Positions 9,045-54,586 of a DNA stretch of 64,000 nt are shown piece after piece (position 1 is the stretch's first letter; each line of letters opens with the position of its first letter). The position numbers and the translations under genes were made by a program. The notes under the pieces are model-generated. The model did no database searches and was not told where the DNA came from. It saw only the letters and a list, made by a program, of their open reading frames with translations. The stretch is from Botryllus schlosseri. Taxonomy: Eukaryota. The DNA is taken from the NCBI GenBank assembly GCA_051294905.1, contig CM119371.1, forward strand, positions 31,622,001 to 31,686,000, written 5' to 3'.

Positions 9045-9944
9045 TTAATGCGCGATTTTCAAATGATACACAAATTCTTTCTGTTGGCATAGACTAGGTT
9101 TGCTCATAGTGATGATGGTGGACTCAAGAACAGACAAATGAAATAAATTGCGACCCTTAGCCAATATAGAGAACATGTCCTCGTGATAGTTAGCAGCACA
9201 CGTATGATTTTCTAGTAAATGTTTGCCTATAGAAGATTTTTGACCCATGGCCTGGTTATGTTCAAGAACAAGCGGATTGTTAAGCTGCGAATTTGAGATA
9301 TAAGATTTGACAGACGGTGGAATGTGTTCTTTGATACGGTCCTGCAACCGTTTGGAAGTTCTTCCTACGTACCGACAATCGCAGTGGCACTTGAATTCAT
9401 AAATTACGTTGCATTGTTTTATAGCCGGGAAAACGTCCTTACGGGATGCAGGAAACATTGGTATCGTGGTAAAAACAACATTGGTTTTCACCGCTGGATA
9501 ACAGCGGTAGACTGCTGAAGTTATCTGTTTCTCAAATCGATAAGAAACCGGGCCAATCCAAGGAAGATGAATGTACACATCCCTATTTTCACGCGAAATT
9601 ACTTCGGGGGTTTCTTCTGGTTTGGTATCATTCCAATGACTTAACTTTTTACTTATTGCCCGCTTAATAACATACTCTGGGTATCCGTTGTCAATGAAAA
9701 TTTTACGGATGTAGTCAAGTTCATTATTCAATTTGACCTCGGAACAAATCATCAACGCCCGGTGAACCAAGGTGCCGATTAAATTGATTTTACGACTTTT
9801 TGGGCTGAAAGAGCTCCATCGAAGGTAATGACCCGAAAATGTGGGCTTCCTATAAACGGAGGTAAGGAATTTGCCATCCCGTTTCTCCCCAAGAACGTCA
9901 AGGAATGCCAAGCGATTGTTAATTTTAGTTTCTACAAGCCACAC
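9045..9944 (-). mobile_element. 5'-truncated Penelope-like retroelement ORF: RT C-terminus/thumb plus GIY-YIG endonuclease
   Basis: 299-aa open frame with LAFLDV, YRKPT, LVHRALMICS, NGYP and VIYEFKCHCDCRYVGRT..LQDRIKEH motifs. Confidence 0.93.
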
Positions 9945-11157
9945 ACAATGTGCAAGCGATAAGACACAATGCGATGCAATGAATTTACAGGATGATGCCG
10001 AACGACCAGTTTTAGTTGCAGTTGCGGTCTGTTAAATTGGCAACCAGCTGGGCTATCTGTCCCGTTTGGTTTAACTTGTCAAAATAATGCGATGCAGACT
10101 CAATGCAGGAGGACAAATGCATCATGACATCGAAAAAGCCGCCGTGTAACAATATAGACGAATGCAAATGTTTATTTGGAAACCACCGAGTTATCATAGT
10201 TTGGTTGTTGTTTCCAAAATGTTTTACACAATAAAGACAGTACTTTAAATGTGGTACTTTTGTGGGTTATGTATGACTATGAGACAAAATGTTGTGGGTG
10301 CCAAACTCCGAAACATGACGTGCTAATGAAAAACGGGTGTGCTTAAATGGTAATGTCCCATCGTCGTATAAATTTTGTATCAAATGGTAAAGACATCACA
10401 AAGCCATCTTGTCTGATTCTATCCGGGAAATGTGAGCTTTGTAAAAAGTAAGTCGGTTCAGGTTTAAATCGTTTCGTCACATTAATCTCACGCCTCGGTG
10501 AGGCCAATCCATAATTTTTTTGCTGAAACCGATAATAGGAACCACTTAAACCCGAATAGTGATTGAACATTAATGAATCAAGTTCGATCCATCGGTGTTT
10601 ACAGTCAAGTACCGTGCAAAAGCAAGTGCGGCCAACACCCCGTCACCTTCGCGTAAAATATGTACCAATTGATCTCATTGTGAGTACAGCTGGGTAACAT
10701 GTGAATATAAACAATAGAAGTGTAGCTTTTGTGTATGAGTCAGCAACTAATACAGAGATCTACAAATTTTTCTCACTAGACACTATACTGATGAGAAGTA
10801 CACACTCTCTCACTGCCAATAAACAATACTCAGAAACGGAATTTGGGGAAGAGTCAAAAACATATGTCTGCATGCACTTAGTCAAGTATTTATGAACTAG
10901 GACTATTGTAAACATTAAACATCTGTTCGACCAAAGTGGCTGAGCTACTTACTGGAAATATTTTTGATTTTCTCAAGTGGGAAACAGTGTTTGTTTATAT
11001 TTGCATCAAAGTTACAAGTGATGTTGTCACTTACAAAACCAGACGATACATTAACTGTTTCCTAATAATATGGCATAATTCCAAAAATTGTACTAATTTG
11101 TGAGGACATCTGTAATTTTGAGTTGATCGCGATTTGGTTGAAATTTTTCCCTCGAAC

Positions 11158-12520: not shown

Positions 12521-13439
12521 TGATGCAGAGTACAAAAGAAAATCCCGCAAAACATTCGATTTTTAATGATTTTATACTCGAACTGTTTTAGCCTGAAATA
12601 TTTATTTACTTTTGTATTTAACATTTAACGATGGTATTGATTAGAATACAGTTACCACATGCATCAAAATGCCTGCGCTTTGTGATTTGATCTTAATAAC
12701 AAAAATTCTAATTCGTTGCCTTTTATTATACAAACTCAGAATCAACCCTATGCCAGACAGAAAAATAGCCAAAAGTTTACTCTAATATGCTTTACGAAAA
12801 ATCAATCGAGTGCCTACGAATAACGCGTCAGAATATTTGATAAATAAATTGATAGAATATAACCTCTCAGTCGATGCCAAGCGATTAAAAATGGACTCAC
12901 ATCGATTAAAGACAGTTTGGTGAATATCCATTTCCTATAGGGCTAATCAGTATAACCATGCACAATGTTTCATATATTAGCAAATTAAAAACCATCACTC
13001 TCCTAACCACAAAATCAATGTTTGGAATGAACTATATTGCTTTTTCGAAGTTTCTTGGTGGGACAGATCCGGAAATATCAATTGAAACCTTGAAATAAAA
13101 ATCGTGCTATAAGTTGAAATCTAGCAAAACATCCCATTTTTATCGATTTTATACTTGAACTGTTTTAGCCTGAAATATTTATTTAGTTTTTCATTTAAAA
13201 TTGATTGGGATACAGTTAATACAGGACTGTGCAAATTCCCAAGTACCATGTACCAGCGATCAAAGACACTTCAGTAAATATGAATTTCCTATAGGATAAA
13301 TCGGTATAACCATGCAAAATATTGCACATAATAAAAAATTCAGAAAATCACTCTCCGAACCAAAAAAACAAATTTTGGAATGAACTATATTGATTTTGGA
13401 AGTTTCTAGGTGAGAGTGATCGGGAGTAGTTAGTATGAT

Positions 13440-13900
13440 CGGTCGTGATTCGCCATTGGTTCTTATGGGTGCGGCGGTGAGGTGCCGCGAAAACTCGTGG
13501 TGGTGATGGCACCCTTTTACACCCCCTCTCGGTGGTGAGGTGCCATGTGTTCTTATGGATGCGGTGATGATGGCACCCTTTCGGGTATAGGCTGCGGTGG
13601 TGAGGTGCCGCGAAAACTCGTGGTGGTGATGGCACCCTTTTACAACCCCTCTCGGCGGTGAGGTACCTATGTGGTGATGATGGTACCCTTTCTGGTATAG
13701 GCTGCGGCGATGATGTGCCTACGGATTCTTGTGTCGTAGTGAACTAACGTTGTGGATATAGGCTGCGGTGATGATGTGCCCACGGATTCTTGTGTCGTAG
13801 TGAACTAACGTTGTGGATATAGGCTGCGGTGATGATGTGCCCACGGATTCTTGTGTCGTAGTGAACTAACGTTGTGGATATAGGCCGCGGTGATGATGTG
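13440..13900. repeat. GC-rich subterminal tandem repeats: ~123-bp unit x2 and 61-bp unit x~3.3; mirrored at ~26906-27366
   Basis: ggtgccgcgaaaactcgtggtggtgatggcaccctt at 13481 and 13604. tataggctgcggtgatgatgtgcccacggattcttgtgtcgtagtgaactaacgttgtgga repeats from ~13696. Confidence 0.95.
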
Positions 13901-15009
13901 GCTGTCGTGTATTATTACACGGTTTCTACTGATTCGCCATGTGTTCTTATGGGTGCGGTCGTGATGCGCACTTTCAACCATCTCTCGCGTGGTGTTGAAT
14001 AGTCACCAACAATATCCGCACAAACGGAAACGTGGCTTGCAAGAGGATTTACGCAGTGCGTGCGACCTATATTTCGAATGACCTGCGTGCGGAATTGTTT
14101 CACGGCCAACCGCGTGCTACTATCGGTTATTACACTAGGCCAGTCAGTGCGAAATAGTTTGCTAAATCTAGGAATCACTTCCAAGGTAATATTTTGGTAA
14201 TTAGTTTACTGCAGAGCCGGCGTAGACGGCGAGTCGAATATCGACAATAACCGCGTTCGCATACTAACACTCTAAAAAGGTGTGAAATATTTGTAAAAAT
14301 CCTACGACCACTCACAAGATAACACATCAGAATAGTCATCTCTCGTGGTTTGGTGTTGCAAAGGTAGGAATTACGCATAAGTAATATTTTGGACGACGAT
14401 GATATATCGTTATTCTTATGGACGCGACGACATGATAACGTTACAGGTATAGGCTGTGGTGGTGATTCGCCATGTGTTCTTATGGGTGCGCTCGCACGTC
14501 GTACTTTCAAGTATAGGTATCTCTCGCATGTCGTATTGGAAACTCGTGTTGGCTCGCTCACGCGGCGAAATTTTAGTAATCAGTTTGTCGCAGAACTTGA
14601 TTTCGCTGGTAAGATTTAATAAGTAACGAATAACAGACCGCCAGTGTCGGTAACTTGAATAGCGACAAATTGTCACTTATTTCCGCTCTAACCCTAATCC
14701 TTTGTGAAGTGAACGCTTATTCAAAAGGTTGTGATATAATTTTAAAATCCAACGACCACTCACCGGATAATGCTGCAGACATAACAATCCCTCATGCCCG
14801 CTCACAAGGTAATATTTCGGTAATTAGTTTGTCACAGAACCGTCGCAGACGGTGATTCAAAACCAACAATTTGTCACTTGCCCGCGATCGCTATATGTTT
14901 CACGCCTCTCGAATAGTGGCTGACTTTAGTTGCGTGATAAGATCCATGAAAATATTCAATCAATGTGTTAGTTTGTCAACTTGAAGTGTAACTCACTACA
15001 CAAATCAAG

Positions 15010-16070
15010 TTGAATCGTATTTGAATGTATTGATTCGACCCAACTCAAATCCTTTGACAAATCCTATTAACGCGATCTGTTGAATCGAACGTAACCTGAA
15101 TATTACTGACGCCAACATTCACCCGCATCGGATCATTCACACATTCCACGCCGCTGTTTTAACACTTATAGAATCAATACCAACTATCTCTAACCCGATA
15201 ATATTCAATCATTTTGGTAATTTGCCAACTTTAAATCCATTCGCGGGATGTACTAAAGGTAAATCCAAATAATCCAGAATGAAATATTTGGACTTTGACA
15301 TTGCGTGAATTGAAATAGGTCTGACAAACATGACTATCAACTTTGATCCAACCACATTTCAAACTCAAACGAATTATTCACAACATTAACAATTGTTAAA
15401 ACTCTAGTTTCACTTACTTGATTATATCATTACAACTCACAAATTTGAATTAATTCATCCTGGTTGTATTCATATGCTCTATCTTTTTATTCAATTGTAA
15501 AGGTTGTTACTATTCTGAAGACAAAGTATTTACTAATCGGTGCATATACGATTTGACTTGGACATATTATATTTTGAGTATACGAGATTTGAATGTCTGA
15601 ACAATAACTGAGAATTATTTTTAACACAAATAAATCCGTATATTACAGCGTAAAAGATATTGGGGTGTCAGCAACTCTGTACGGTCGTAGTTACAACCAC
15701 ATTAACTAATCTGCCCAGGCAACTCGTCATGATCATTCCTGAAATCAACACAAACACGACCACTGACTTGAGTTAACCGCGAAACACCATCAAGTTTTAA
15801 ATCCGCTTGCAGCTGACGGATTATTCGAATGCATCGATGGGGAATATTATTGAACTCGTCGGTATTGTTACTTCAACAAATTACACCGACTGCGAAAGTT
15901 AATATCGAATGGTAAGACTTGATCACATATTTGTTGATCACAGACATGACGAAAAAAAACATTACCGAGATTTTATAAACTAGTCATATTACTCTACACA
16001 TCTATCAATATCAAAATGCGAGTCATCCAATTTTTCTACTAAAGTAACATTGCACTTTCGGATTCGAATT
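15010..16070 (+). pseudogene. Possible decayed Polinton minor capsid (penton) gene; mirrored at ~24736-25796
   Basis: Ends with ITLHIYQ..HPIF / TKVTLHFRIR (VTLHFR at 16044-16061), preceded by LTDYSNASMGNIIELVGIV. This resembles the penton C-terminus as I recall it. Many stops and frameshifts; by eye only. Confidence 0.3.
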
Positions 16071-16887
16071 CGGTATAGTCATACAAATTGTATTAAATCC
16101 AACATCAAAACAAAAGGAATTTTTTTTTTAGTTTATTGAAATCAAATCATTCGTCTTCGACTTGTGCTTTTCTAGATTACCCGCGACAATTCGTTTCGAG
16201 TGAGTTGTAACCAAAGTCAAGATATCTTTGTGTCCACAGATATGGAAGATGAATATAGCTAACACAATCACGAATCGACGTTTCAGAGTATTTCACGGGT
16301 GCATTAAACTTGTTAGTGTCACCTATCTAAAAGTACGCACGCGTTCGATTTCCATACCGACTGTTGCGATGTTTAGGATTCACTTACAATAACCACGGGT
16401 GAGGATTTAACATCAATGTCGTTACTGTCGGAATTTGCGACAGAGAATTGAAACATATGCACTTTACAGAGTGTGAAAATATCACTTTGAGTATCGAGTA
16501 CCGTTCGAAGCTAGCGATCAATTCTTAATCATTTCAGTAACTCACCATTGTGCGTGCTAAATGTAAAATATCGCGAGGTTATACACTCTAAGACTTTGAT
16601 TATTGTAAAAGTAAATTGTGATATGTTTGTTAGATGCATCCAATTCAACTAGAAGTGTCTAGTATCCAACACTCGTAATATCAAAAAAGTACTTGCTACA
16701 CTGTTATTTGCTAAACGTGTTTTGCATTGTTGTTCATTTCTAGTATTGATTGAAATTGTTTTTGAACCCTCAAATAATAATTCCCGACATGAAATTAAGC
16801 CGCCGAAAGTCGTTACCATCACAAAGAAACAATTTGCACGATGTTTACTAAATGTATCCTATAGTTAGGTGTACTGGAATTATTTGT

Positions 16888-16890
<3 letters not shown>

Positions 16891-16938
<48 letters not shown>
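16891..16938. repeat. (AC)24 microsatellite; the mirror copy is (GT)25 at 23866-23915
   Basis: Directly visible. Confidence 0.95.
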
Positions 16939-16940
<2 letters not shown>

Positions 16941-18599
16941 TCAGAGAAATTGGAAATTTTTCCGTTGTCATTCGCTAAAGTAAATGTCATCACAATACTC
17001 TGTCACTAAAAGACGTTACTTGGACGTGCTTGAATTCTAGACATAGTTCTGATTTACCCAACACAAGACCCAAGGACAACCCTAGTTTCAGCCGAACACA
17101 GATATCCAAAATATCACACACTTCGCTATTCCTAAAGCACAAACGCACGATACAAAATAATACTTGTTGTGTTGTTGCAGCATCATCACTCAACAATATC
17201 ACCCTCAATACAAATGATGTTTATGTGTAACATGCTATTGATTTGAACCACACCCACCTCACGGAAGAGGATTTACTCAATCTTTACAAAATGGATATTG
17301 ACCAACATCACATCACCGGATTGTATCTGTTTCGCTGGATACGAGTTATGTTAGTTTAACAGTAAACAAATTTCACCCTCTTGGATTATGAACTCAATGC
17401 GTTACAAGTCATTCAATATTTTGTTTGTGTCAACTAGTTACTTGGTATGTTACTCCACAACTCTTACAAAAGTACGAAGGATATTAACATCGCACTAAGT
17501 AATTAACTTTACTCGATATTCTCGCATTACGAAACTAAAGAATGGTTGGTTAGACTCTACAAACTGTTTCGATATCACAAGACCTTTATTGTCTGAATGG
17601 GTGTTCATGTGTCTTAAGAACCAAATAGTTCAACACAGCACTAGTACCAACAGAAACATCAGAGTTGTTTACACAAAAGTTTGTATGCGTGCAGTATGCG
17701 AATACCATGTGTAAGTCCAGCACAATTGTGGTATCCATCCGGGTTTAGTTAACACAATTTACGACACCGAGGTCACCTCATCTTTCGTAAGCCAACAAAC
17801 CAACCAAGGTTTCAGGATATGTCCGTGTCATAGCAATAAATCAGCTACTCCAACAACAGAGTACATATGTTTTCTAGTTACGGCGCTTACATCTTACACA
17901 CAAATCAATCTACTTTGCTAACAAAAAGTGCTGGGTCATCAAGTGATTACCCTAACAACAAAACAGCTAAATGTACTATCATACAAAATGGCCGTTATAG
18001 TCACCAACGGTACATGGTACAAGTAACAAGTCTCGAGAATCCAGTTATTGAAAAAACATGAAAGTGTTTCTCCTGCGCCAAGTCGTTATGTTGACTAAAG
18101 CGTATATTGTAATATCATGATCGATTTGCATTCGTTGGTCACAAAATGTCACTACTCTAAATAATTATTTTTCACTCAAACACAAACGCATACTTGTCGT
18201 CAATCGTTTTCATCAAGCACGAGTTCAAGAAACCTGCTACGACATGAATTGTTATTTTTTTTATGTTGTGTAAATAGGTAATAATTAATTTTAGTAACAC
18301 TATATCAACATCATCTAGTTGCGCGAATAGATTTACACGTGGTCTTGTGGTTTTAATCGAAGTATACAGCACGGTCTAATGTAGAGTCATCTCTACTGTA
18401 CAGCAACTCGGTAATCGAAATGCATTAAAATTTAAACAACGATCTTGTTTCGTCGCACCAAAAATATGTTTACTATCGCGATACTCTGCACAGGCCGTGT
18501 AAATCCTTTTCACACTCGTAATAGTATACCAACAGCTACCGGCGACAACGTTTAACAATACCAACGACACTAAAAAACGATACCTATACCCAAGTAAAA

Positions 18600-19380
18600 T
18601 TACCATTTTCACCTGGAGGTCGGTCGTTACCCGAGTAGAAATACCATTGTCCTTTGGAGATTTATCGTTTACCCAGTGTAACAATCCCCTTTTCACTTGG
18701 AAATATATTTTTGACCTGGATAACAAACCCCTTTTCACTTGGAAATCTATTTTTGCCCTGGATAACAAACCTTTTTCACTTGGAAATATATTTTTTCTCT
18801 TGGTAACAAACCTTTTTCACTTGGAAATATATTTTTTCTCTGAGTAACAAACCTTTTTCACTTGGAAATCTATTTTTGCCCTGGATAACAAACCTTTTTC
18901 ACTTGGAAATATATTTTTTCTCTTGGTAACAAACCTTTTTCACTTGGAAATATATTTTTTCTCTGAGTAACAAACCTTTTTCACTTGGAAATCTATTTTT
19001 TCTCTGGGTAACAAACCTTTTTCACTTGGAAATATATTTTTTCTCTGGTTAACAAACCTTTTTCACTTGGAAATATATTTTTTCTCTGGTTAACAAACCT
19101 TTTTCACTTGGAAATATATTTTTTCTCTGGGTAACAAACCTTTTTCACTTGGAAATATATTTTTTCCCCGGGTAACAAACCTTTTTCCCTGAGCAACAAA
19201 CCATTTTCACTTGGTGGTCCGTCGTTTACCCGAGTAAAAATATCATTTTCCTTTAGAGATCCGGCGTTTACCCAGTGTAACAATACATTTTCACTTGGAA
19301 ATCTGTCATTTACCTGAGTACCAATACCGTTTCACTTGGAAATCTATCATTTTCCTGGGTAACAATACCATTTTCGTTTT
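18600..19380. repeat. 41-42-bp minisatellite, about 12 well-conserved units plus diverged flanking units
   Basis: Unit approx aacaaacctttttcacttggaaatatattttttctctgggt. Confidence 0.95.
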
Positions 19381-19569
19381 GAAAACTAACCACCACACCG
19401 GGTCAATTTGATATTTTTGGATATTGTTACAACGGACAGTGACAACATATACACCAACAGCGACTCCGATACATTTGTGTAATCGCATTTTCACTTGTTC
19501 TGGTGCATCCCATCAAAATCGACGGTTAGCCACACACACACACACACACACACAATAACAACGCGCTAT

Positions 19570-20570
19570 TTCGATATGACTGCAATGTCCGGGTTCATGC
19601 TTTAGATTTTCCAGAATCAATCCGTCTAAAGTTGTAATCCCCCCGACTTTGTTAACTGGTTGATACACGGATAACAATCTTCGGAAAATGTAGGAACGCA
19701 TGCTACCCATCGTGCGCACGATTCCAGGTTACTTGTGATTAATTTCCTTGCTCACACTATACAGATTATACGTACAGGGATATGTAGCGGTAATCGGTTT
19801 GGTCAATACATATCGCCCCATCCAGTATGGAATTACAAACCCAATACAGGCCAGTTCATAACCGGATCCGGATATTCAATGCAAAGCGATAAAGCAGAAC
19901 CAATGACCAAATGTAATTAAACATATAGATTCACAACCCTTGATTTTTTTTTCGTGAAAAATGACAATACATATCGAATATACTTTACGATTGTTCAACC
20001 CTACCAAGTATTCACGTAAATGTGGTTTATGACATTACATACAATGTGTCGGTGTACAAATGTTGGGTGTTTATGCACACATCGGTATGACCCATAGACA
20101 ACATCATCATACCCTCCAGGACTTCAGTCAACTACCATTGGTCTCTCGATACAGCGAACGATACAGTATGCAACACATATCATTAGAGTGATATATCCAC
20201 AGGTAAATATGGGGACTGGTCACAATAATTGTACGACGCCGACAAATCGATGCACGCAAGGTGTGGTTGATAATAATTGTTTCATGCATCAAAGAGACAG
20301 CACCCTCTTGTAAAGGTTAACAGATCCCGCAGAAACACGCCATTTTGGATTACATTACCAAATCGATTTCAAACTTAAACCGAATCACTGGTGTTGAGAG
20401 TAGCGATACCCGATTTTTCGAATATTCATATAGACTTAGTGCGCGATCAGTAACGACACTTATAAACATTGTGAATATTAGTAATTCGAGTCGTGTCTAT
20501 CTTGTGATGTTTCAAGTTGCTAAAACCATCGAGTGAATCAGTGAACGGATAGTAATCTCGGTTAAATCTC
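19570..20570 (+). pseudogene. Probable decayed Polinton double-jelly-roll major capsid gene, running from the left arm through the spacer
   Basis: Ordered fragments across frameshifts: FDMTAMSGFML(D)FSR..KVVIP; INFLAHTIQII..ISPHPVWNYK..GYS..DK; TLDFFFVKND; GVQMLGVYAH; IDNIIIPSRTSVNYHW; TRFFEYSYRLS..NISNSSRVYLVMFQ. They parallel the motif order I recall for Polinton MCP. No search run. Confidence 0.4.
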
Positions 20571-20573
20571 GAC
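20233..20573. other. Unique 341-bp spacer (loop) of the palindrome
   Basis: Arm complementarity stops at ...cacaataattgt (20232) and acaattattgtg... (20574). Confidence 0.95.
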
Positions 20574-23500
20574 ACAATTATTGTGGCCAGTCCCCATATT
20601 TACCTGTGGATATATCACTCTAATGATATGTGTTGCATACTGTATCGTTCGCTGTATCGAGAGACCAATGGTAGTTGACTGAAGTCCTGGAGGGTATGAT
20701 GATGTTGTCTATGGGTCATACCGATGTGTGCATAAACACCCAACATTTGTACACCGACACATTGTATGTAATGTCATAAACCACATTTACGTGAATACTT
20801 GGTAGGGTTGAACAATCGTAAAGTATATTCGATATGTATTGTCATTTTTCACGAAAAAAAAATCAAGGGTTGTGAATCTATATGTTTAATTACATTTGGT
20901 CATTGGTTCTGCTTTATCGCTTTGCATTGAATATCCGGATCCGGTTATGAACTGGCCTGTATTGGGTTTGTAATTCCATACTGGATGGGGCGATATGTAT
21001 TGACCAAACCGATTACCGCTACATATCCCTGTACGTATAATCTGTATAGTGTGAGCAAGGAAATTAATCACAAGTAACCTGGAATCGTGCGCACGATGGG
21101 TAGCATGCGTTCCTACATTTTCCGAAGATTGTTATCCGTGTATCAACCAGTTAACAAAGTCGGGGGGATTACAACTTTAGACGGATTGATTCTGGAAAAT
21201 CTAAAGCATGAACCCGGACATTGCAGTCATATCGAAATAGCGCGTTGTTATTGTGTGTGTGTGTGTGTGTGTGGCTAACCGTCGATTTTGATGGGATGCA
21301 CCAGAACAAGTGAAAATGCGATTACACAAATGTATCGGAGTCGCTGTTGGTGTATATGTTGTCACTGTCCGTTGTAACAATATCCAAAAATATCAAATTG
21401 ACCCGGTGTGGTGGTTAGTTTTCAAAACGAAAATGGTATTGTTACCCAGGAAAATGATAGATTTCCAAGTGAAACGGTATTGGTACTCAGGTAAATGACA
21501 GATTTCCAAGTGAAAATGTATTGTTACACTGGGTAAACGCCGGATCTCGGAAGGAAAATGATATTTTTACTCGGGTAAACGACGGACCACCAAGTGAAAA
21601 TGGTTTGTTGCTCAGGGAAAAAGGTTTGTTACCCGGGGAAAAAATATATTTCCAAGTGAAAAAGGTTTGTTACCCAGAGAAAAAATATATTTCCAAGTGA
21701 AAAAGGTTTGTTAACCAGAGAAAAAATATATTTCCAAGTGAAAAAGGTTTGTTAACCAGAGAAAAAATATATTTCCAAGTGAAAAAGGTTTGTTACCCAG
21801 AGAAAAAATAGATTTCCAAGTGAAAAAGGTTTGTTACTCAGAGAAAAAATATATTTCCAAGTGAAAAAGGTTTGTTACCAAGAGAAAAAATATATTTCCA
21901 AGTGAAAAAGGTTTGTTATCCAGGGCAAAAATAGATTTCCAAGTGAAAAAGGTTTGTTACTCAGAGAAAAAATATATTTCCAAGTGAAAAAGGTTTGTTA
22001 CCAAGAGAAAAAATATATTTCCAAGTGAAAAAGGTTTGTTATCCAGGGCAAAAATAGATTTCCAAGTGAAAAGGGGTTTGTTATCCAGGTCAAAAATATA
22101 TTTCCAAGTGAAAAGGGGATTGTTACACTGGGTAAACGATAAATCTCCAAAGGACAATGGTATTTCTACTCGGGTAACGACCGACCTCCAGGTGAAAATG
22201 GTAATTTTACTTGGGTATAGGTATCGTTTTTTAGTGTCGTTGGTATTGTTAAACGTTGTCGCCGGTAGCTGTTGGTATACTATTACGAGTGTGAAAAGGA
22301 TTTACACGGCCTGTGCAGAGTATCGCGATAGTAAACATATTTTTGGTGCGACGAAACAAGATCGTTGTTTAAATTTTAATGCATTTCGATTACCGAGTTG
22401 CTGTACAGTAGAGATGACTCTACATTAGACCGTGCTGTATACTTCGATTAAAACCACAAGACCACGTGTAAATCTATTCGCGCAACTAGATGATGTTGAT
22501 ATAGTGTTACTAAAATTAATTATTACCTATTTACACAACATAAAAAAAATAACAATTCATGTCGTAGCAGGTTTCTTGAACTCGTGCTTGATGAAAACGA
22601 TTGACGACAAGTATGCGTTTGTGTTTGAGTGAAAAATAATTATTTAGAGTAGTGACATTTTGTGACCAACGAATGCAAATCGATCATGATATTACAATAT
22701 ACGCTTTAGTCAACATAACGACTTGGCGCAGGAGAAACACTTTCATGTTTTTTCAATAACTGGATTCTCGAGACTTGTTACTTGTACCATGTACCGTTGG
22801 TGACTATAACGGCCATTTTGTATGATAGTACATTTAGCTGTTTTGTTGTTAGGGTAATCACTTGATGACCCAGCACTTTTTGTTAGCAAAGTAGATTGAT
22901 TTGTGTGTAAGATGTAAGCGCCGTAACTAGAAAACATATGTACTCTGTTGTTGGAGTAGCTGATTTATTGCTATGACACGGACATATCCTGAAACCTTGG
23001 TTGGTTTGTTGGCTTACGAAAGATGAGGTGACCTCGGTGTCGTAAATTGTGTTAACTAAACCCGGATGGATACCACAATTGTGCTGGACTTACACATGGT
23101 ATTCGCATACTGCACGCATACAAACTTTTGTGTAAACAACTCTGATGTTTCTGTTGGTACTAGTGCTGTGTTGAACTATTTGGTTCTTAAGACACATGAA
23201 CACCCATTCAGACAATAAAGGTCTTGTGATATCGAAACAGTTTGTAGAGTCTAACCAACCATTCTTTAGTTTCGTAATGCGAGAATATCGAGTAAAGTTA
23301 ATTACTTAGTGCGATGTTAATATCCTTCGTACTTTTGTAAGAGTTGTGGAGTAACATACCAAGTAACTAGTTGACACAAACAAAATATTGAATGACTGCT
23401 AACGCATTGAGTTCATAATCCAAGAGGGTGAAATTTGTTTACTGTTAAACTAACATAACTCGTATCCAGCGAAACAGATACAATCCGGTGATGTGATGTT

Positions 23501-23863
23501 GGTCAATATCCATTTTGTAAAGATTGAGTAAATCCTCTTCCGTGAGGTGGGTGTGGTTCAAATCAATAGCATGTTACACATAAACATCATTTGTATTGAG
23601 GGTGATATTGTTGAGTGATGATGCTGCAACAACACAACAAGTATTATTTTGTATCGTGCGTTTGTGCTTTAGGAATAGCGAAGTGTGTGATATTTTGGAT
23701 ATCTGTGTTCGGCTGAAACTAGGGTTGTCCTTGGGTCTTGTGTTGGGTAAATCAGAACTATGTCTAGAATTCAAGCACGTCCAAGTAACGTCTTTTAGTG
23801 ACAGAGTATTGTGATGACATTTACTTTAGCGAATGACAACGGAAAAATTTCCAATTTCTCTGA

Positions 23864-23918
<55 letters not shown>

Positions 23919-26900
23919 ACAAATAATTCCAGTACACCTAACTATAGGATACATTTAGTAAACATCGTGCAAATTGTTTCTTTGTGATGGTAACGACTTT
24001 CGGCGGCTTAATTTCATGTCGGGAATTATTATTTGAGGGTTCAAAAACAATTTCAATCAATACTAGAAATGAACAACAATGCAAAACACGTTTAGCAAAT
24101 AACAGTGTAGCAAGTACTTTTTTGATATTACGAGTGTTGGATACTAGACACTTCTAGTTGAATTGGATGCATCTAACAAACATATCACAATTTACTTTTA
24201 CAATAATCAAAGTCTTAGAGTGTATAACCTCGCGATATTTTACATTTAGCACGCACAATGGTGAGTTACTGAAATGATTAAGAATTGATCGCTAGCTTCG
24301 AACGGTACTCGATACTCAAAGTGATATTTTCACACTCTGTAAAGTGCATATGTTTCAATTCTCTGTCGCAAATTCCGACAGTAACGACATTGATGTTAAA
24401 TCCTCACCCGTGGTTATTGTAAGTGAATCCTAAACATCGCAACAGTCGGTATGGAAATCGAACGCGTGCGTACTTTTAGATAGGTGACACTAACAAGTTT
24501 AATACACCCGTGAAATACTCTGAAACGTCGATTCGTGATTGTGTTAGCTATATTCATCTTCCATATCTGTGGACACAAAGATATCTTGACTTTGGTTACA
24601 ACTCACTCGAAACGAATTGTCGCGGGTAATCTAGAAAAGCACAAGTCGAAGACGAATGATTTGATTTCAATAAACTAAAAAAAAAATTCCTTTTGTTTTG
24701 ATGTTGGATTTAATACAATTTGTATGACTATACCGAATTCGAATCCGAAAGTGCAATGTTACTTTAGTAGAAAAATTGGATGACTCGCATTTTGATATTG
24801 ATAGATGTGTAGAGTAATATGACTAGTTTATAAAATCTCGGTAATGTTTTTTTTCGTCATGTCTGTGATCAACAAATATGTGATCAAGTCTTACCATTCG
24901 ATATTAACTTTCGCAGTCGGTGTAATTTGTTGAAGTAACAATACCGACGAGTTCAATAATATTCCCCATCGATGCATTCGAATAATCCGTCAGCTGCAAG
25001 CGGATTTAAAACTTGATGGTGTTTCGCGGTTAACTCAAGTCAGTGGTCGTGTTTGTGTTGATTTCAGGAATGATCATGACGAGTTGCCTGGGCAGATTAG
25101 TTAATGTGGTTGTAACTACGACCGTACAGAGTTGCTGACACCCCAATATCTTTTACGCTGTAATATACGGATTTATTTGTGTTAAAAATAATTCTCAGTT
25201 ATTGTTCAGACATTCAAATCTCGTATACTCAAAATATAATATGTCCAAGTCAAATCGTATATGCACCGATTAGTAAATACTTTGTCTTCAGAATAGTAAC
25301 AACCTTTACAATTGAATAAAAAGATAGAGCATATGAATACAACCAGGATGAATTAATTCAAATTTGTGAGTTGTAATGATATAATCAAGTAAGTGAAACT
25401 AGAGTTTTAACAATTGTTAATGTTGTGAATAATTCGTTTGAGTTTGAAATGTGGTTGGATCAAAGTTGATAGTCATGTTTTTCAGACCTATTTCAATTCA
25501 CGCAATGTCAAAGTCCAAATATTTCATTCTGGATTATTTGGATTTACCTTTAGTACATCCCGCGAATGGATTTAAAGTTGGCAAATTACCAAAATGATTG
25601 AATATTATCGGGTTAGAGATAGTTGGTATTGATTCTATAAGTGTTAAAACAGCGGCGTGGAATGTGTGAATGATCCGATGCGGGTGAATGTTGGCGTCAG
25701 TAATATTCAGGTTACGTTCGATTCAACAGATCGCGTTAATAGGATTTGTCAAAGGATTTGAGTTGGGTCGAATCAATACATTCAAATACGATTCAACTTG
25801 ATTTGTGTAGTGAGTTACACTTCAAGTTGACAAACTAACACATTGATTGAATATTTTCATGGATCTTATCACGCAACTAAAGTCAGCCACTATTCGAGAG
25901 GCGTGAAACATATAGCGATCGCGGGCAAGTGACAAATTGTTGGTTTTGAATCACCGTCTGCGACGGTTCTGTGACAAACTAATTACCGAAATATTACCTT
26001 GTGAGCGGGCATGAGGGATTGTTATGTCTGCAGCATTATCCGGTGAGTGGTCGTTGGATTTTAAAATTATATCACAACCTTTTGAATAAGCGTTCACTTC
26101 ACAAAGGATTAGGGTTAGAGCGGAAATAAGTGACAATTTGTCGCTATTCAAGTTACCGACACTGGCGGTCTGTTATTCGTTACTTATTAAATCTTACCAG
26201 CGAAATCAAGTTCTGCGACAAACTGATTACTAAAATTTCGCCGCGTGAGCGAGCCAACACGAGTTTCCAATACGACATGCGAGAGATACCTATACTTGAA
26301 AGTACGACGTGCGAGCGCACCCATAAGAACACATGGCGAATCACCACCACAGCCTATACCTGTAACGTTATCATGTCGTCGCGTCCATAAGAATAACGAT
26401 ATATCATCGTCGTCCAAAATATTACTTATGCGTAATTCCTACCTTTGCAACACCAAACCACGAGAGATGACTATTCTGATGTGTTATCTTGTGAGTGGTC
26501 GTAGGATTTTTACAAATATTTCACACCTTTTTAGAGTGTTAGTATGCGAACGCGGTTATTGTCGATATTCGACTCGCCGTCTACGCCGGCTCTGCAGTAA
26601 ACTAATTACCAAAATATTACCTTGGAAGTGATTCCTAGATTTAGCAAACTATTTCGCACTGACTGGCCTAGTGTAATAACCGATAGTAGCACGCGGTTGG
26701 CCGTGAAACAATTCCGCACGCAGGTCATTCGAAATATAGGTCGCACGCACTGCGTAAATCCTCTTGCAAGCCACGTTTCCGTTTGTGCGGATATTGTTGG
26801 TGACTATTCAACACCACGCGAGAGATGGTTGAAAGTGCGCATCACGACCGCACCCATAAGAACACATGGCGAATCAGTAGAAACCGTGTAATAATACACG

Positions 26901-27381
26901 ACAGCCACATCATCACCGCGGCCTATATCCACAACGTTAGTTCACTACGACACAAGAATCCGTGGGCACATCATCACCGCAGCCTATATCCACAACGTTA
27001 GTTCACTACGACACAAGAATCCGTGGGCACATCATCACCGCAGCCTATATCCACAACGTTAGTTCACTACGACACAAGAATCCGTAGGCACATCATCGCC
27101 GCAGCCTATACCAGAAAGGGTACCATCATCACCACATAGGTACCTCACCGCCGAGAGGGGTTGTAAAAGGGTGCCATCACCACCACGAGTTTTCGCGGCA
27201 CCTCACCACCGCAGCCTATACCCGAAAGGGTGCCATCATCACCGCATCCATAAGAACACATGGCACCTCACCACCGAGAGGGGGTGTAAAAGGGTGCCAT
27301 CACCACCACGAGTTTTCGCGGCACCTCACCGCCGCACCCATAAGAACCAATGGCGAATCACGACCGATCATACTAACTACT
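20574..27381 (-). repeat. Right arm of the giant inverted repeat (6,808 bp)
   Basis: Reverse complement of 13425-20232. Confidence 0.98.
21424..22204. repeat. Mirror copy of the 41-42-bp minisatellite
   Basis: Unit approx tttccaagtgaaaaaggtttgttacccagagaaaaaatata. Confidence 0.95.
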
Positions 27382-28470
27382 ATCGGGAAATATCAATCAG
27401 AACCCGGGAGAAAAAATCGTGTCACACGGTGTTATTATTAATTTTAAGAGATGTAGATGGAGTCGAAGTTGGACTCAGGAGCATTTCCACAAACTCCGAA
27501 CCCGACTTGAGCCGATATTTTATCCTCGACACCGACTCCAAGGCGTGCTAAAACTTATTTGAGACTCCGACTTCATTGAGGGTAAAACGAGGGAGACTCC
27601 GACTCCACAGCCTCCAAAACTGGAGTAGTATAAAATATGCATATTTGCACATTTCAAGTCATAATATGGGCTCCGCGAATGCTACACATCGGCTAATATT
27701 CTCGATATGGAATCGATTAACAAGGATACTTTATTTTGCTCCGCCCGAATTATCACACGCATTATTGAAACTCGCCTTATCTTAGGCAGTTACTCTCATC
27801 TTCGCCGTTTGGACAATCCAATCTGTAACAGTAGCATTGGCATATGTGAATAATAAAACATATTGACTTACAAAGCAGAGTAGGTGCGAATGTTTTGATT
27901 TTAGTGAACACTAATATTGAATGACAAATTCAGAGATATATGCATACATGTGATACAGGATAAGACTCGCAACATCGGCTTCCATCGCAATTTGGAAGTT
28001 GTATCTAGCAATGCATGCATTCACCAAATGATGCAATTAGCCTGTTTTTGTTGTTGTTGTTGTTGATTGTTATGTTTAGTAATCACTTGCCTTTTATACT
28101 GAGGTAGTAAGTAGCGTAATTAAAAGCGATAGCATTCGTTCATGATTGTTGCCGGAATCAATTGGAAATATTTTTATAGTTAGATACATTATCAAACTTT
28201 AGTCACGTAAGGCCTACTTGATTCATGTGTGTGTAACCTTTGGTTAACTGTATGACTTCCGTATACCACATCAATAGAAAGCCAGGCTGATTAGTAAATG
28301 AATATGTTCGCGAGGTGACCTACCTGTGATCGCACACCCTTGATGAGTCTATCAATTTCCTAGCTCCGTTCGTCCCGACAGGGCACTCGATTGTAGGCAA
28401 GTGCGTCTTTGTTGCATCTTCGTGTGAATTCTAGTTAGCAAAATTATAACAATTCAAAAATGGTACTCAC

Positions 28471-34552: not shown

Positions 34553-36190
34553 CAGGGGTGGGCAAACTACGGCCCGCGGGCCGCATGCGGCCCGCGACAC
34601 CGTTTTGTGCGGCCCGCGAAAGCCTTAAGAATCGTATTTAAAATATTGAAAAAATGCGCAGTAAAGATCTAATTTCTGCATGGATTCCATTAAACTTTTT
34701 CTCATTATATTTCACCACGATAATTATAAGTTATGTTCTGGTTACTATATTTTTGTTTTATTGCTGGTGCGATAATAGCCCGACCTCAAGGCCCGTGCAT
34801 TTGAAAAGATTTCAATTGCTAACCATTACAGAAAGTCAAAATATGATTGACTTTCGAATCGCGAGTGTAATTTTACATTGTTGCTGTACTTGGAAAAATC
34901 GATTCGCGCGTGTGGTAGATTGATTCATTCTCTATATGTGCAGAAGTATTTATATTGATAAAATCTATATATAGCATATTTGAAGCTAACATGGTTATAA
35001 CGCAGTCAGCATTGTGTGTCCTGGGGTTGAGCCAAAAGTAGAATCAGCAAATATATAAACATATCTTTGCTCACAGATTCAAATCTCCATCCTGTTTTAA
35101 GAATTTGGACAACCGACTTTCATCCATAGTTTTGAAAATTGGTTATATTGTCGGGTTACCATATTTTGGAAATCTGAACAGAGGACACTTTTTCAAAATT
35201 TTCAGACTTAAAATACTGGAGTAACATCCGGAAAAATTGGTAAATTTTTTCCGACTTTCTAGATGGTTTGACTGAAAAATATAAAATAGAACAGATTTCC
35301 GTCTCAACTCCCGATATAGGCTACCCGTCGGAACGTTACTTGAGTACTGATTTTCTTTATCTCAGCGGAAATTTAACCTATATTTAACCAAAATTTTCAA
35401 AACAGAGGTCATTTGGCCGTCCTCCGAGGACATTTTCAAAAAAGTCAAAAAAGACGACAAATCCTCTTAAAAGAGGACGTGGCAACCCTATTATATTGAG
35501 GTTGACCAGCAGCTTATGAAAGCTCGCCAATGTTTCTGACGCGTGTACCATATCCTCAAATCAATGGTTGGTTGGTTTTAAATAAAAATTCATATAATTT
35601 CCATATCCTCACTATATAATCACCAGTGTTGCGTTTTGGTTTATAATCTCAATTTTGTATAGTGCGGCAGAAGAATGGATTTAGATGTTGAATGCTCGGT
35701 CAACGACTGTTTTTCTTTACAAAATGGTTACTGATGAGGTCGATCCACTTATATATTAGCCTATATATGGCAGGGGTTCTCAAACTTAGGGGCGTGAAAG
35801 CATCTGGAAGGAGGCGCAAAGTCGTAGTAAACGGAAATTTTTTTCGCGATTTGCCACCATTTCATGGTTTTGCTCTGGATATGTCCATATTTCATATTTG
35901 ATAATGCTCTCGTCTACAGCCATAACCTTCAATGACATCAAACTATGCGTTGGGATTGCTAGCATTCTGATTTCTCTCTTAGATATTTTGTGATATCAGA
36001 ACAAAGGGGGCGCGGAATTTTTCACTATCATAAAGGGGAACGTGTCTACTAGTTTAAGAAGCACTGCTATATGATTAAATTACAACATTGCCATTTGGCC
36101 CATAATCTCAATTTTTTTAATGCAGTGCGGCCCGCCAATGGATTTAGATGTTGAATGCGGCCCGCGAGCCCAAAAGTTTGCCCACCCCTG
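34553..36190. mobile_element. Non-autonomous hAT (Charlie/Buster-like) with two nested MITEs (35151-35490 and 35771-36066)
   Basis: TIR CAGGGGTGGGCAAAC, perfect TSD CCTTAGGG. The nested 35151-35490 element has perfect TSD TTATATTG. Confidence 0.92.
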
Positions 36191-36644
36191 CCTTAGGGCA
36201 ACTTCTATTAGATTCAGAAAGTTCTGGAGATTCTGACGTGAGTAAGTGAGTTGGAATGAATATTACACTCTGCTGAATTAGAAGATCAAGATCGAAGAAC
36301 CCTACTGTCGATGCAGCCTGGTTGGAATGCGTCGTTCCCCAACTTACAATCTTTCCCTCAGTCACTCACCCGCAAATTATGTTTTCCCGGTTATACTTAT
36401 GCGATGGAATCGCGATAAGAGGAGTGAGCTATCATTTTTTTAGTAGGAAGTTACTTAACTGCGGAAGAAAGGTATCTGTCGATTCATCACATGACTGTTT
36501 AAATCAACGAAAGTGTTTACGCAGTTTCATAATAGTTTATTAGCATTGAAGTGCATTAAATATATTCACACGACACCGCCAGGTCTTATGACATCTCGAT
36601 GAATATTCTGCAATCCCCCCTCAACTTTAGAGGCTGAAATGTGA

Positions 36645-36700
36645 GCAATCTTTCTCGTCCGCTCCATTGTAGCAGTCCTGAATGAAAGTATATGGTCTCA
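36645..36700 (-). pseudogene. LDLa C-terminal motif fragment in a degenerate region
   Basis: Minus-strand FIQDCYNGADEKDCSH. Similar text occurs at window positions 1-50. Confidence 0.5.
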
Positions 36701-37495
36701 TAAGCGTGAAGTGACTTGTGCCAATAACAGTCTCGAAATCGTTATCCGTGGGTGTTAGTTGCTAATTTACAATCCCCGATGAATCATAATCAGGAAAAGT
36801 CCCAGTGACCACAATCGGGTGTTTTTAATTTGTCGTTCGGTATCAATGGAAGTTTGCGCGTTCATATCTTCAGATCTAGAAGCGTGATGAAATAAGGTTT
36901 GCTAGGCAAGACTGCGTAACCAATCGTTCCAACTACTTTTGAGTTCTCCAGGAAATCGTATTCAATATGTGACATTATTTGAACACTTTGACTCTGTTGC
37001 GTTTACGATTTTTGAATTTACGAATTTGTCGATGCTTTCTGCTGAAATACTGCAGCTGCACTCTAAGGAAGACATGGGAGTAGTTGATTTAACTGGCGCC
37101 AGTGACCGTTTTTACTTCAAGCTACAATTGAATCATTTTTTGATGCTGTATATTCACATACGTCGTGTTTGTCGCACTTTTTCTCGATCGGTATGTTCGG
37201 TAACGGCTCATCGGTGCAGTAGAACCTGTAACGCGAATATAACTGCATGTTATTGCGTTCGCAGCTTAATTAGTTGGCGGTACGCGCGCAATGCAATGAT
37301 ACCCGGTTTCATGTAATGTTCTTTGAACAAGTTGCACCTGCTTAAAGAGGTCGCAATCGTCAAAGTCCTGCTGATTCTGAACTAATGAATTTGATATAAT
37401 CAACTGAAAGCGTGGACCGTAAAGTGGCGACATCGCCCCATATGGTGGCTAATTTGAGTGACGGCAGAGAAACACAGTGTTGAACCATTTTACAT

Positions 37496-37800
37496 TAGGG
37501 TTACCATATTTTGGAAACGTGGAAAGATGACACTTATTCAAAATTTTCAGACTTGCAATACCGGAGGCAAATCCTGAATAAATGATAAATTTTAATCACT
37601 TCGTAGTCGGTTGACTGAAAAAAGAAGGGCAACTTTCTGGCGATCCCGAAATAGCCATCGAAGCGTTAGTTCAGTGCTGATTTACTGTATGTCAGTTGAA
37701 TTCTGCCCTATTTTCACCAAAATTATCAAAAACAGGAGATTTGGGCGTCCTCCGAGGACACTTTAATGAAAGTCAAAAACGAAGACGTATGGTAACCCTA
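37496..37800. mobile_element. hAT-type MITE with TAGGGTTACCATA ends; same family as 35151-35490
   Basis: TIR TAGGGTTACCATA...TATGGTAACCCTA. TSD ttttacat/ttatacat. Confidence 0.85.
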
Positions 37801-37837
37801 TTATACATGACAAGCTACTTAAGTATATGGTTTAAAC

Positions 37838-38496
37838 CAGTGGCTGTCAACCGGTGGTCCGCGAGGCATTTTCAGGGGGTCAGAGAAACCTCTGAATTTG
37901 AATCGTGACTGAAAACCAATTTGTAACTTTTTTAAATTAGGGAAATCACGCTGCAGTTTCGCAACCAACTGCGAATGCTTCAGTAAGAAGATCAACAGAA
38001 TGGCGGTCTGAGATCAAATATCCTACCTTGTAAACTGATTTTAATTGTCAAATTGCAAACAGCCTACTGATACAAACATATCGCTATTTAAAAATATTTT
38101 GTTGAGGTTTGTTGGAACTTGGGTTTTCTAGTCTGTCGGAAAAAAGGGATTACACCTGATCACGGAATCCATTTCTCCTGCTATATACATAACAACTATT
38201 CCAGAATATATTGAGGATGAGCTGCTATATAGAAATGACTAGTCTGGACGTGATGACTTCATTGAAAAATATGTTTCTCAATTTAGTTGCCATATATGTT
38301 GCGATGGTGCTCAAAGGTGAATGATCAGAACGATCATTTTGTTGCTATTCATCACTTGCACTGAGTTGATATTTGCACAAGACAGAAGACTGTTGCACGA
38401 GAATTGAGCTAAATTTGAACAAAAACTTGAAGGGGTCCGCGGGGTCCGTCACTGTTCAGAAGGAGTTCGTGAAGACATAAAGGTGTAGAACCACTA
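37838..38496. mobile_element. Older hAT-type MITE
   Basis: CAGTGGCTGTCAACC...AGAACCACTA ends, with gtttaaac-like flanks on both sides. Confidence 0.55.
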
Positions 38497-38796
38497 TGTT
38501 TTAAACCTAATTGAATACGATCAAGTAGAAGGGTAACTTTGCTGATGACCTTTAGACTGTTTAGCGGTGAGTTGGAAAAGTTTGTTGTAAGTTTGTTGTA
38601 AGATTGTTGGCTGAGCCTTCATCATCCTCACTCTGTTTGTATCCACACGGTTTGCTGGCTATAGGCAAAAGAGTGTGTTCCGGATCTGACCTGGTGCGGA
38701 AACGCTGCAGTACCCTCTTCACAGGTTATGGTCGAAAAATGATTTACTGCTTTCTACACAGGATTATAATCAATCTGTTACAGCGTCATTACTCAC

Positions 38797-38904
38797 CTTG
38801 ATTTACATCCTCGTTCATCAGCGAAGTTGTCACACAGGCCCTCCCCGTCGCACATATTTTCACGTACAAGTATGAAAGATTTTCCCGTTACGATGTGGTC
38901 ACAC
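38797..38904 (-). CDS. LDLa-repeat exon
   Basis: AG|..CDHIVTGKSFILVRENMCDGEGLCDNFADERGCKS..|GTGAGT. Confidence 0.75.
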
Positions 38905-40244
38905 CTTCAGAATAAATGCGGTAAGTAGATTACGTGTTTTTATAATTTAAGGTTGTCACTTCGAATACCATTCAGTCGTGCGTGTGTTTGAGTGACATCT
39001 TGAAATGTGTTGTATTAAGGATTTCAGTGAAAAAAATATAGTTGTTCCGATGCAGCAGATTGATATATTCTATTTGAATCACTGAACCTAATCCCTAATA
39101 ATAATCATACCTCTCTAATACAACCCTGTTCTACCTAACGTGTATTATTAGTCAATCAAATGATGATAACCGTCATTGTCATGCAAATGAGTCAACTGTT
39201 AGCCTACTCATTTTACCAACATTTACATCGCTCAGATCACCGATATGGCTGAGGTGATTGTGATTAGGCGCACTAATCATCAATTCTTAAACGAGTGGAT
39301 ATTGAAGGATGTGACGAGAATGCTATGTCAATAAAATTGGCATGTAGTCACGGTGCTAATATTGTTATTGACCAACCGACCAATCTATTTATTCTCCAGG
39401 TATAGCCTACACATTCCTATCCAATACTTAGCATACAGCATATTCATTGTTGGCGAGGTCTTTAGAGTTGGGAGGCAGACTTCCTTTCAATCAGATTTGC
39501 AAATAAATAAAACGGTAATGGTTAGATGATTCAATCGATGGCTTGTTAAATATAACAGTAGCACTCTGCACACGCAGGCAACGTAAGATATACCCACAAT
39601 TGAAAATAGAGACGGAAATACATTACAATTACGTCAGTTAAAGAGGGTTATTGTTAATAAATACCTTTTCGCCGTCGCAACATCTCACACTGCAATGCCC
39701 TGCACAGTTAATCTGTAGCTGGAAAAACATTGCTTGCCTGCGTTTCGATTCTTAAATTTTTGAGTAAAATGGTTGAGGCAGTTTAATTTGCACCTCACCT
39801 TATATTGTATCGCCGCGCTGCCATTGCATGTTACAAACCAGATTTAAAATCTATTTTGCGAATTGGCGGGGGTTCTGGTGACCTGACATGGTTATTATTT
39901 CTGTTTTCAGAACTAGCGCATAATAATATTAGCCTAACAACAGCTATCATAACTTCTGAGCCGTTTTTGATAAATTGCGCTTTCACAGGTGAGGCGTGGA
40001 TCGTCTGCGCCTAACCTCTCCTTTAGCCGGTATCTTTGAATGATCAATATGCGAGCCGCACAATTTTGGGTGATAAATATGTCCATGACTACCAACAGAA
40101 GATTAGCAATTATCATAGAAAGTCTTTACACTTTTGCTTTTAGGCCTGAAACAAGCGATACACCGCCTCGCATGCCACACCTGACCGCACGGCTATGTTG
40201 CTAATGTACATTCATTATGGATGATTTCTTGAATGATACTAACC

Positions 40245-40408
40245 ACGGGTCGTCCGGAGTGAAGAAGACCCAGTAACTGCCGTCTTCGAAAGGATTGATC
40301 ATATCGATAAATCTGCAGTACTCTGGTTTCGCATCACAGTTGTAGTCACATTCTTCTACCAAGAAATCATCGCATTCAACGACCCCATCACACTTCGTGG
40401 CGTCTGAA
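40245..40408 (-). CDS. LDLa-like exon
   Basis: SDATKCDGVVECDDFLVEECDYNCDAKPEYCRF..., preceded by a (TC)n pyrimidine tract. Boundaries approximate. Confidence 0.65.
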
Positions 40409-40810
40409 CATAGAGAGAGAGAGAGGGGGGATAAATAGTTTCATATGGATTTAAAAACAATTAAACCTGGGCACGTTACCCAATAAATAATTGCAATATT
40501 TCAGGTAGCACGAGGAACTGTGTGATGAATAACCATACAAAAACAGGGTCCGGAGACAAATGTTACACAATTTCCAATACAGTGTACCATTATACAATTT
40601 ACACTTTAAATGAAACAAGCTACGCCGAACTCACATTTCCCGACAGGTGACTTGCATTCATAGTTTAATTCTTTGACCTGTTGAGACCAACTGCTCGGTG
40701 ACTCTGAAATAAAATCACCTAGTCGGTCGTCATAGCAATATCCCGTCCTACGACCGTTGACAGATCAAATTGTGTAGCATTATTGAACTTCAAAACTGTA
40801 TCGTCTAGCG

Positions 40811-41119
40811 CAGTCGTGCTCAGACGGTTTTAGACACGCCCCCCTTTATGATAGTGAAGAATTTCGCGCCACCATTTTATCGTGATATCACAGAATATCG
40901 AAAAGAGCAATCAGAATGCTAGCAATCCTAACCGATCGTTTGATGACATTGAATGTTATGGCTGTTGATGAGAGAATTGTCAAATATTCAATTCGGACAA
41001 TATACAGAGCAATAAGCATGAGCTGTAGGTAAATTTTCAGTGAACTGCGGCTTCACGCGCCCCTTCAGATGCTTTAACGCCCCAAAAGGGGGTGCTCCTC
41101 CCTAGTTTGAGAACCACTG
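40811..41119. mobile_element. hAT-type MITE; family of 11158-11390 and 35771-36066
   Basis: Ends TTTGAGAACCACTG. Internal sequence is reverse-similar to 35771-36066. Confidence 0.7.
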
Positions 41120-54189: not shown

Positions 54190-54586
54190 CTTTAGCTATT
54201 CTTTTTGAAGATCAATCTGTGTTTCCAACATTGCCTACCTTAATTATCAGTCCATGTATACACCATATATTGTCCGTATTATGCTGTACGACCAGTAATC
54301 ATGGCATCATTAGTACGGTTTCCAAAGGTTTTAAAATAACAAGGAAGCAGAGTAGCATTGATTTTCATATCGCAATGTCCGCACCCACTGCGGAAAGTAT
54401 ACAGTTACCTTCACAATCTAAGGCGCTCGCTGGTTCTCCCTCCGGCAGCATGCATACGCGTCCACCCCAGTAAACCGTTTTGCGACAGAAACCAACGTTG
54501 GAGTTGTATTTGATACTGTTGTTGAACAATTTATGATCCGACTTGTCTCTGAACAGAAACAGTGCATGGACATCCTTGGTCTAGCC

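Follow-up and report, generated by a model that had tools for sequence, protein, structure and literature searches.

The stretch 19570-20573 is the centre of a 13,957-bp palindromic element of Polinton type that lacks core genes, and it lies in the 64-kb stretch of the Botryllus schlosseri genome that we analysed (C1:31622001-31686000, referred to here as the window; the genome is 495 Mb). The features of the element are collected in Table 1. The anatomy given in the first-pass annotation, with a left arm reaching to 20232, a spacer at 20233-20573 and a right arm starting at 20574, agrees with our comparison of the arms. Tandem arrays with units of 41 bp, 58 bp and 61 bp are found within the arms at 18678-19375 and 13472-13900 and at the mirror positions. 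Elsewhere in the window we find two more elements, at 35882-40999 and 51404-56100, with inverted ends of 133 bp and 97 bp, and a minus-strand frame of 328 codons at 9045-10031.

Table 1. Features of the palindromic element, in window coordinates, with the basis for each assignment.
Feature	Position	Strand	Basis
Target site duplication, left, 6 bp ATCGGG	13419-13424	+	Sequence
Palindromic non-autonomous Polinton/Maverick-type element, 13,957 bp	13425-27381		AGTAGT...ACTACT ends; complementary arms; dispersed copies
Left arm, 6,808 bp	13425-20232	+	Alignment with right arm: 7 mismatches, plus two (CA)n tracts that differ by 2 nt
Sub-terminal DNA with a counterpart in the terminal repeat of an autonomous Maverick	13896-14161	+	81% over 273 bp
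Arm DNA with the first of the proposed capsid motifs; non-coding by the tests run	19570-20060	+	60-65% blastn identity, both arms of five sisters
Tail of 91-codon gene and 3' flank in original context, inner end of left arm (putative template)	20137-20232	-	Profile columns 941-1067
Unique spacer, 341 bp	20233-20573		Deleted form of the sisters' 0.86-0.98-kb spacer, minus-strand reading
Putative relic of 91-codon gene, about codons 68-75	20233-20254	-	19/24 bases identical to sister L218; anchored score 10.2
Homologue of DNA upstream of the sisters' 91-codon gene	20258-20453	-	Profile columns 392-631, E 2.6e-14
Homologous to arm end and spacer start on the far side of sisters, adjoining the right junction	20488-20578	-	Profile columns 123-225, E 6e-4; blastn to L218, L219 and L240
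Inverted copy of gene tail and flank, inner end of right arm (putative copy)	20574-20669	+	Profile columns 989-1067
Right arm, 6,808 bp, mirror image of left arm	20574-27381	-	Arm comparison
Target site duplication, right, 6 bp ATCGGG	27382-27387	+	Sequence

The element is present in many copies. A search with the 71-residue frame of the spacer gave 120 matches among 122 candidates on many chromosomes, corresponding to roughly 110 loci once split matches are merged, and exact 6-bp target duplications were found in three of four further copies that were checked, the fourth being unresolved. A 425-bp contig of a separate public run, covering 20212-20616, spans both junctions, and in two further public runs all 29 bins of the centre are covered; one of the covering runs may be the source sample. 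Because contigs of separate public runs span both junctions, the centre of the element is not an assembly artefact. For RNA, no covering run was listed, and one raw RNA run gave no matching reads, an outcome that says nothing about expression. Copies that share this centre (L013-L030, compared with window 13425-19100) carry differing mosaics of arm modules and terminal variants, and these are always mirrored across the two arms. In three further copies (L157, L158 and L203), elements with AGTAGT-type ends are inserted in the spacer of this family, at the spacer ends.

The ends of Mavericks have been described as 5'-(AGT)2//(ACT)2-3', with a 6-bp target duplication (PMC8097293, Barreat and Katzourakis 2021). 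The element has in common with the Polinton/Mavericks of animals, as described in PMC8097293 and, for adintoviruses, in PMC8502044, the (AGT)2//(ACT)2 ends, the 6-bp duplication and a size near 14-15 kb. It differs in that its terminal repeats are 6.8 kb long and make up 97.6% of its length, in contrast to the 100-1,000 bp given for Polinton/Mavericks in PMC4196379, and in that, unlike an autonomous Polinton/Maverick, it lacks intact core genes. The element as a whole contains no ORF longer than 165 aa and no intact gene for pPolB, integrase, ATPase, protease or the major and minor capsid proteins; Maverick core genes had no match to it by tblastn, and a profile scan of the element returned weak traces only. 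At least four clades of autonomous Mavericks are represented in the genome (loci L033/L034 and L065-L072), and the terminal DNA of the element is related to that of the clade A autonomous Maverick only, with no relatedness to the loci of the three other clades. In the Maverick at C1:30838413-30854242, the 273-bp stretch with 81% identity is present at both ends. As judged from sequence, the link of the element to Polintons lies in its ends, its target duplication and its shared terminal-repeat DNA, not in a capsid at 19570-20573, and apart from the ends of the element this link is weak. From the ends, the target duplications and the copy number only, we infer that helper proteins mobilise the element in trans. 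Among the 99 candidates scored, about 80 are near-identical capsid genes of clade A.

Related palindromes in the same genome provide the comparison from which the centre can be read. Out of 12 stretches fetched from other palindromes, five match the arm DNA of the element to about 20060, in both of their own arms and at 60-65% identity (blastn), and these five sisters have spacers of 864-978 bp with an intact ORF of 91-93 codons. The ORF occurs once in the sisters, wholly within the spacer; it contains no indels among them and shows a third-position bias (0.18/0.14/0.28). The arms of the sister subfamilies are homologous to those of the window element, at 60-65% near the centre, and their spacer DNA is homologous too, with its order preserved. 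In the window element, only the tail of the gene is left, the spacer has shrunk to 341 bp, and the arm boundary lies about 100 bp further in. The 91-codon ORF has 1,187 candidate places in the genome and no Pfam family. A model of the 91-residue protein is confident and all-beta (pLDDT 83.5), and its interpretation as a piece of a capsid was rejected, as the model has no fold match at E 1e-3 in viral and PDB libraries.

Outside the palindromes, the 91-codon gene is found within one polymerase-less derivative of a clade D Maverick, beside an ORF that we take to be Bcl-2-like. The two adjoin each other at L073 6689-8136 (C1:8324688 onward) and at L259 5434-8538, and in L073 they take the place of the polymerase region of a clade D Maverick. 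At one clade C Maverick copy, the gene lies beyond the terminal repeat, about 100 bp away, and it is absent from the clade A and B loci, the second clade C locus and the two other clade D loci examined.

We built a DNA profile from 14 sister centres and mapped it on the window. Columns 123-225, 392-631 and 941-1067 match the minus strand of the window, all in order. The last of these blocks corresponds to 20253 down to 20137 (E 1e-6) and spans the junction 20232/20233. The gene relic is broken upstream, where about 300 profile positions, representing upstream DNA and about the first 67 codons, are absent, and it is broken again at the junction 20232/20233, where about 22 nt of the gene are absent. 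A plus-strand match of columns 989-1067 to 20579-20669 (E 1.4e-5) lies on the other side of the spacer, without the upstream context of the gene. At the junction 20573/20574, two pieces meet that lie apart in the sisters, the gene tail and the far-side spacer start. On these alignments we read the spacer as a deleted form of the sister spacers, and the motifs that the first-pass annotation saw in it as the reverse strand of gene-upstream DNA; its TRFFEYSY is the opposite strand of the homologue at 20258-20453.

To assess on which side the gene tail is original, we scored the continuation of the gene into the spacer from each junction. In this anchored test the left junction scored 10.2 and the right junction 4.5, against a null of 5.2±0.8 (maximum 8.0, n=394). 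The left junction is kept in 62 of 71 copies, with a match in 60 of the 62, and all 60 extend 15-22 nt into the spacer; the right junction is kept in 61 of 71, with a match in 57 of the 61, whose extent ranges from -6 to +9 nt and never exceeds 9 nt. The copies share one origin, and these junction counts are a measure of consistency and do not represent independent events. Counting against the direction, the right-side match also reaches 6-9 nt into the spacer in 27 of the 57 copies. All five sisters score the left reading above the right. The gene piece in the spacer is only about 22 nt long and is not significant when unanchored (profile E 1.1; 13-194 of 300 shuffles reach its score), and its weight lies in its position and order.

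Because only the left side keeps the upstream context of the gene, we take 20137-20232 as the template and 20574-20669 as the copy. The innermost ~100 bp of the right arm were probably copied from the left arm by a template switch, through the 91-codon gene and not through a capsid gene, and we attach the same good confidence to the reading as a whole, that is, to a palindromic Polinton-type centre with a deleted sister spacer and a left-to-right template switch. The left-to-right direction proposed by the first-pass annotation is therefore retained, but by way of the 91-codon gene on the minus strand instead of a capsid gene, and it is limited to the last ~100 bp because the duplication of the outer arm goes back at least to the common ancestor. 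Its idea that the right arm was cut in the middle of a gene likewise holds for the 91-codon gene and not for a capsid gene, and its view of the left arm plus spacer as the ancestral linear sequence does not extend to the whole arm, since 19570-20060 is already present in both arms of the sisters. In the sister clade of L240, the arm was extended from the other side. Microhomology at the junctions (4-5 nt, symmetric) gives no direction, and a possible gene remnant of ~10 nt in the right end of the spacer was set aside at 3-7 matches in 11. Two copies, L173 (C3:13469321-13472533) and L196 (C4:8866016-8869228), have later inverted duplications that place the first 100-120 bp of the spacer in the right arm, with the source on the left side. 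We rejected them as ancestral long-arm states, since they keep the standard junction and the duplication was added later.

A mechanism that would produce this centre starts from an ancestor that was already palindromic and whose spacer contained the 91-codon gene intact. Most of this gene and of the DNA upstream of it would then have been deleted, and a polymerase moving past the centre would have folded back, duplicating the gene tail on the far side. The element would be replicated and integrated in trans by resident Maverick proteins, and self-pairing of a single-stranded stem likely keeps both arms alike. In a comparison of 41 copies, the median mismatch between arms is 0.14% within a copy, 0.72% to the nearest other copy, a distance inflated by this limited number of copies, and 4.2% across all pairs. 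An indel at 20125 falls into three classes (0, about +116 and about +130 bp), and of the 48 copies, out of 71, that could be assessed, 47 have the same indel length in the two arms. Host gene conversion, or simply a recent origin, would also account for arms that are nearly identical.

From sequence analysis, it has been proposed that Polintons replicate by way of a racket-like, single-stranded intermediate (PMC4196379), and template switching has been described as equalising and extending inverted repeats in yeast chromosomes (PMC13100816). Similar to this repeat expansion, the copying of arm onto arm would lengthen and equalise the inverted repeat; the yeast case involves short chromosomal repeats, while here a whole mobile element is involved and the product is found at about a hundred sites. 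A broader scheme, which we put forward as a possibility short of a probable one, is that palindromic Polinton satellites re-copy one arm from the other in a self-paired stem, so that the boundary creeps inward and swallows the centre, and that this subfamily was caught mid-gene, lost the only gene of the family and spread to ~100 sites.

Because the two junctions are common to about 60 dispersed copies, and exact 6-bp duplications are found in the window and in the three further copies noted above, the element moves in its present form. This makes it unlikely that the junctions were formed by deletion and inversion in an integrated copy, with the arms equalised by host gene conversion and the replication of the element uninvolved, an origin that would nevertheless be in keeping with the 2 of 71 copies in which the spacer start was later duplicated, in inverted form, within the right arm, and with the homogenisation and lengthening of yeast chromosomal inverted repeats by template switching (PMC13100816). 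Such an origin would alter the place of the copying, not its direction.

If arm re-copying in a self-paired stem is the correct scheme, the subfamily would be a passenger that has no genes and acts purely in cis, and a natural record against which to test the racket-intermediate model; movement of the boundary on one side only, together with indels present in both arms, would give the proposal of racket-like replication checkable predictions at the sequence level. A successful subfamily has lost the 91-codon gene, which shows that this gene is not needed in cis. We found no wholly palindromic non-autonomous Polintons, including the sister subfamilies, in the literature that we searched, with most subscription papers, supplements and Repbase outside its scope, and such elements could be described in supplements or Repbase-type entries. 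What is new here is the rejection of the capsid reading, the polarity of the arm extension and the loss of the one gene of the family in a subfamily that spreads.

The capsid reading had been drawn by the first-pass annotation from plus-strand fragments said to follow the motif order of the Polinton major capsid protein from the left arm into the spacer. Seven of the eight motif strings searched are present in the plus-strand translation, distributed over three frames [INFLAHT at 19738, WNYK at 19828 and GYS at 19870 in frame 1; VQMLGV at 20054, TRFFEYSY at 20408 and NISNSSRVYLVMFQ at 20474 in frame 2; IDNIIIP at 20094 in frame 3]. DFSR is absent from this translation, frame 2 reading FRFSR near 19598. 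The fragments exist, but a path through them in the proposed order takes at least four frame changes, plus stops, and their best positions are not colinear, either on a PF21738-type profile (88, 89, 394, 149, 177, 94 and 212) or on a profile built from the capsids of the genome itself (283, 267, 329, 285, 30, 71 and 52). INFLAHT is the sole fragment that stands out on the PF21738-type profile, with 2 of 60 random peptides scoring as high, and the FRFSR piece is the sole one on the own-capsid profile, with 3 of 60. The capsid likeness of the fragments is no better than chance; it consists of a by-eye resemblance of short hydrophobic fragments, with no significant or colinear match to a Polinton capsid at 19570-20573 in either reading.

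The PF21738-type profile was made from 23 representatives with a median pairwise identity of 48%, all natural capsids from viral contigs, homologue search and metagenomes, and the second profile is a shallow one from four resident capsids only, which barely match PF21738. The labels 'group 1' and 'group 2' for these two capsid types are provisional. The frameshift-aware profile check of 19570-20573 that the first-pass annotation had proposed gave no hit colinear across 20232. Local alignment of 19500-20640 reached 19.3 bits, compared with 20.0±2.9 for 108 window tiles (maximum 29.7), and on the same PF21738-type profile intact resident capsid genes scored 48-62 and naturally decayed relatives 497-668. 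With three capsid profiles, both readings of the region (left arm plus spacer, and right arm plus minus-strand spacer) stay within the range of the tiles. When the region is aligned as DNA to the four resident capsid genes, the scores are no better than those of shuffled sequence (12-138 of 200 shuffles attain them), and tblastn and tblastx with the four resident Maverick clades gave nothing significant against the region. Pfam scans of the three frames and the fragments gave a sub-threshold GnsAB match only, which we take as chance. Viral contigs gave no match to the spacer peptide, to the integrase or to the alignment of resident capsids. Own-genome family searches with PF21738 and PF03175 were also empty; they are insensitive, as a resident polymerase passes the PF03175 cut-off. 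Two weak tests were also negative: word-based homologue searches, with the spacer frame and with the natural frame of a longer copy in full, had no match at E 1, and an Atlas search had nothing at 0.9. Resemblances noted by eye between the spacer minus strand and a capsid C-terminus, and between the longer copy and capsid and protease motifs, fell to chance level once scored.

In the homologous arm DNA of six sisters, 19 of 100 indels are multiples of 3, mismatch is flat across codon positions, and the WNYK codon is a stop in five of the six. The motif region thus appears free of coding constraint in the sister elements, in a test that is blind to decay older than the split of the subfamilies. 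With capsid profiles at chance in both directions and no coding constraint in the sisters, a capsid relic crossing 20232 is not upheld by the tests run, and there is no detectable Polinton capsid remnant at 19570-20573. A capsid, if real, would have tied the palindromes to Polintons through a gene and independently of their termini, and at 19570-20573 this argument fails.

An older capsid relic, running from the right arm inward into the minus-strand spacer and implying an original fold-back in the reverse direction, is very unlikely. On the resident capsid profile, the sister L218 is colinear along arm plus spacer over profile positions 86-295 at 34.5 bits (maximum of window tiles 33.0) and its best piece recurs in its close relative L219, but the other 13 sisters do not repeat this, the same profile positions land on non-homologous DNA in other sisters, tblastn is without a match at E 0.05, and the window itself scores 17.9-26.0 bits, within the tile range. 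A reading of about the same low probability, a decayed plus-strand Polinton major capsid gene at 19570-20573 from a clade too distant for the profiles used, can appeal to the existence of the fragments, to a score for INFLAHT that, at a plausible position in the profile, exceeds those of 58 of 60 random peptides, to the four-sequence basis of the resident-type profile and to decay before the subfamily split that would erase codon signals, and against it stand the chance-level alignments in both directions and with three profiles, the scores of the controls, the lack of colinearity, the missing DNA-level match to four resident capsids and a spacer that is already accounted for as the reverse strand of DNA upstream of another gene.

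Weak capsid-like scores occur elsewhere in the arms, where the DNA inflates scores for other profiles also. A minor-capsid profile gave 36.8 bits at 16385-16765 (-) and 29.8 bits at 17847-18226 (+), without clear motifs, and similar scores at inconsistent places in other arms suggest that these are probably compositional. A weak major-capsid-like trace, found post hoc and without DNA-level support, lies at 17110-17300 (+), with its mirror near 23500-23690 (-), and may be a remnant of a resident-type major capsid gene, from its N-terminal part. It scores 33.0 bits on the resident capsid profile, a value that none of 300 shuffles and none of 272 host tiles reach, and three of its fragments match the N-terminal region of these capsids, in order and with near-right spacing.
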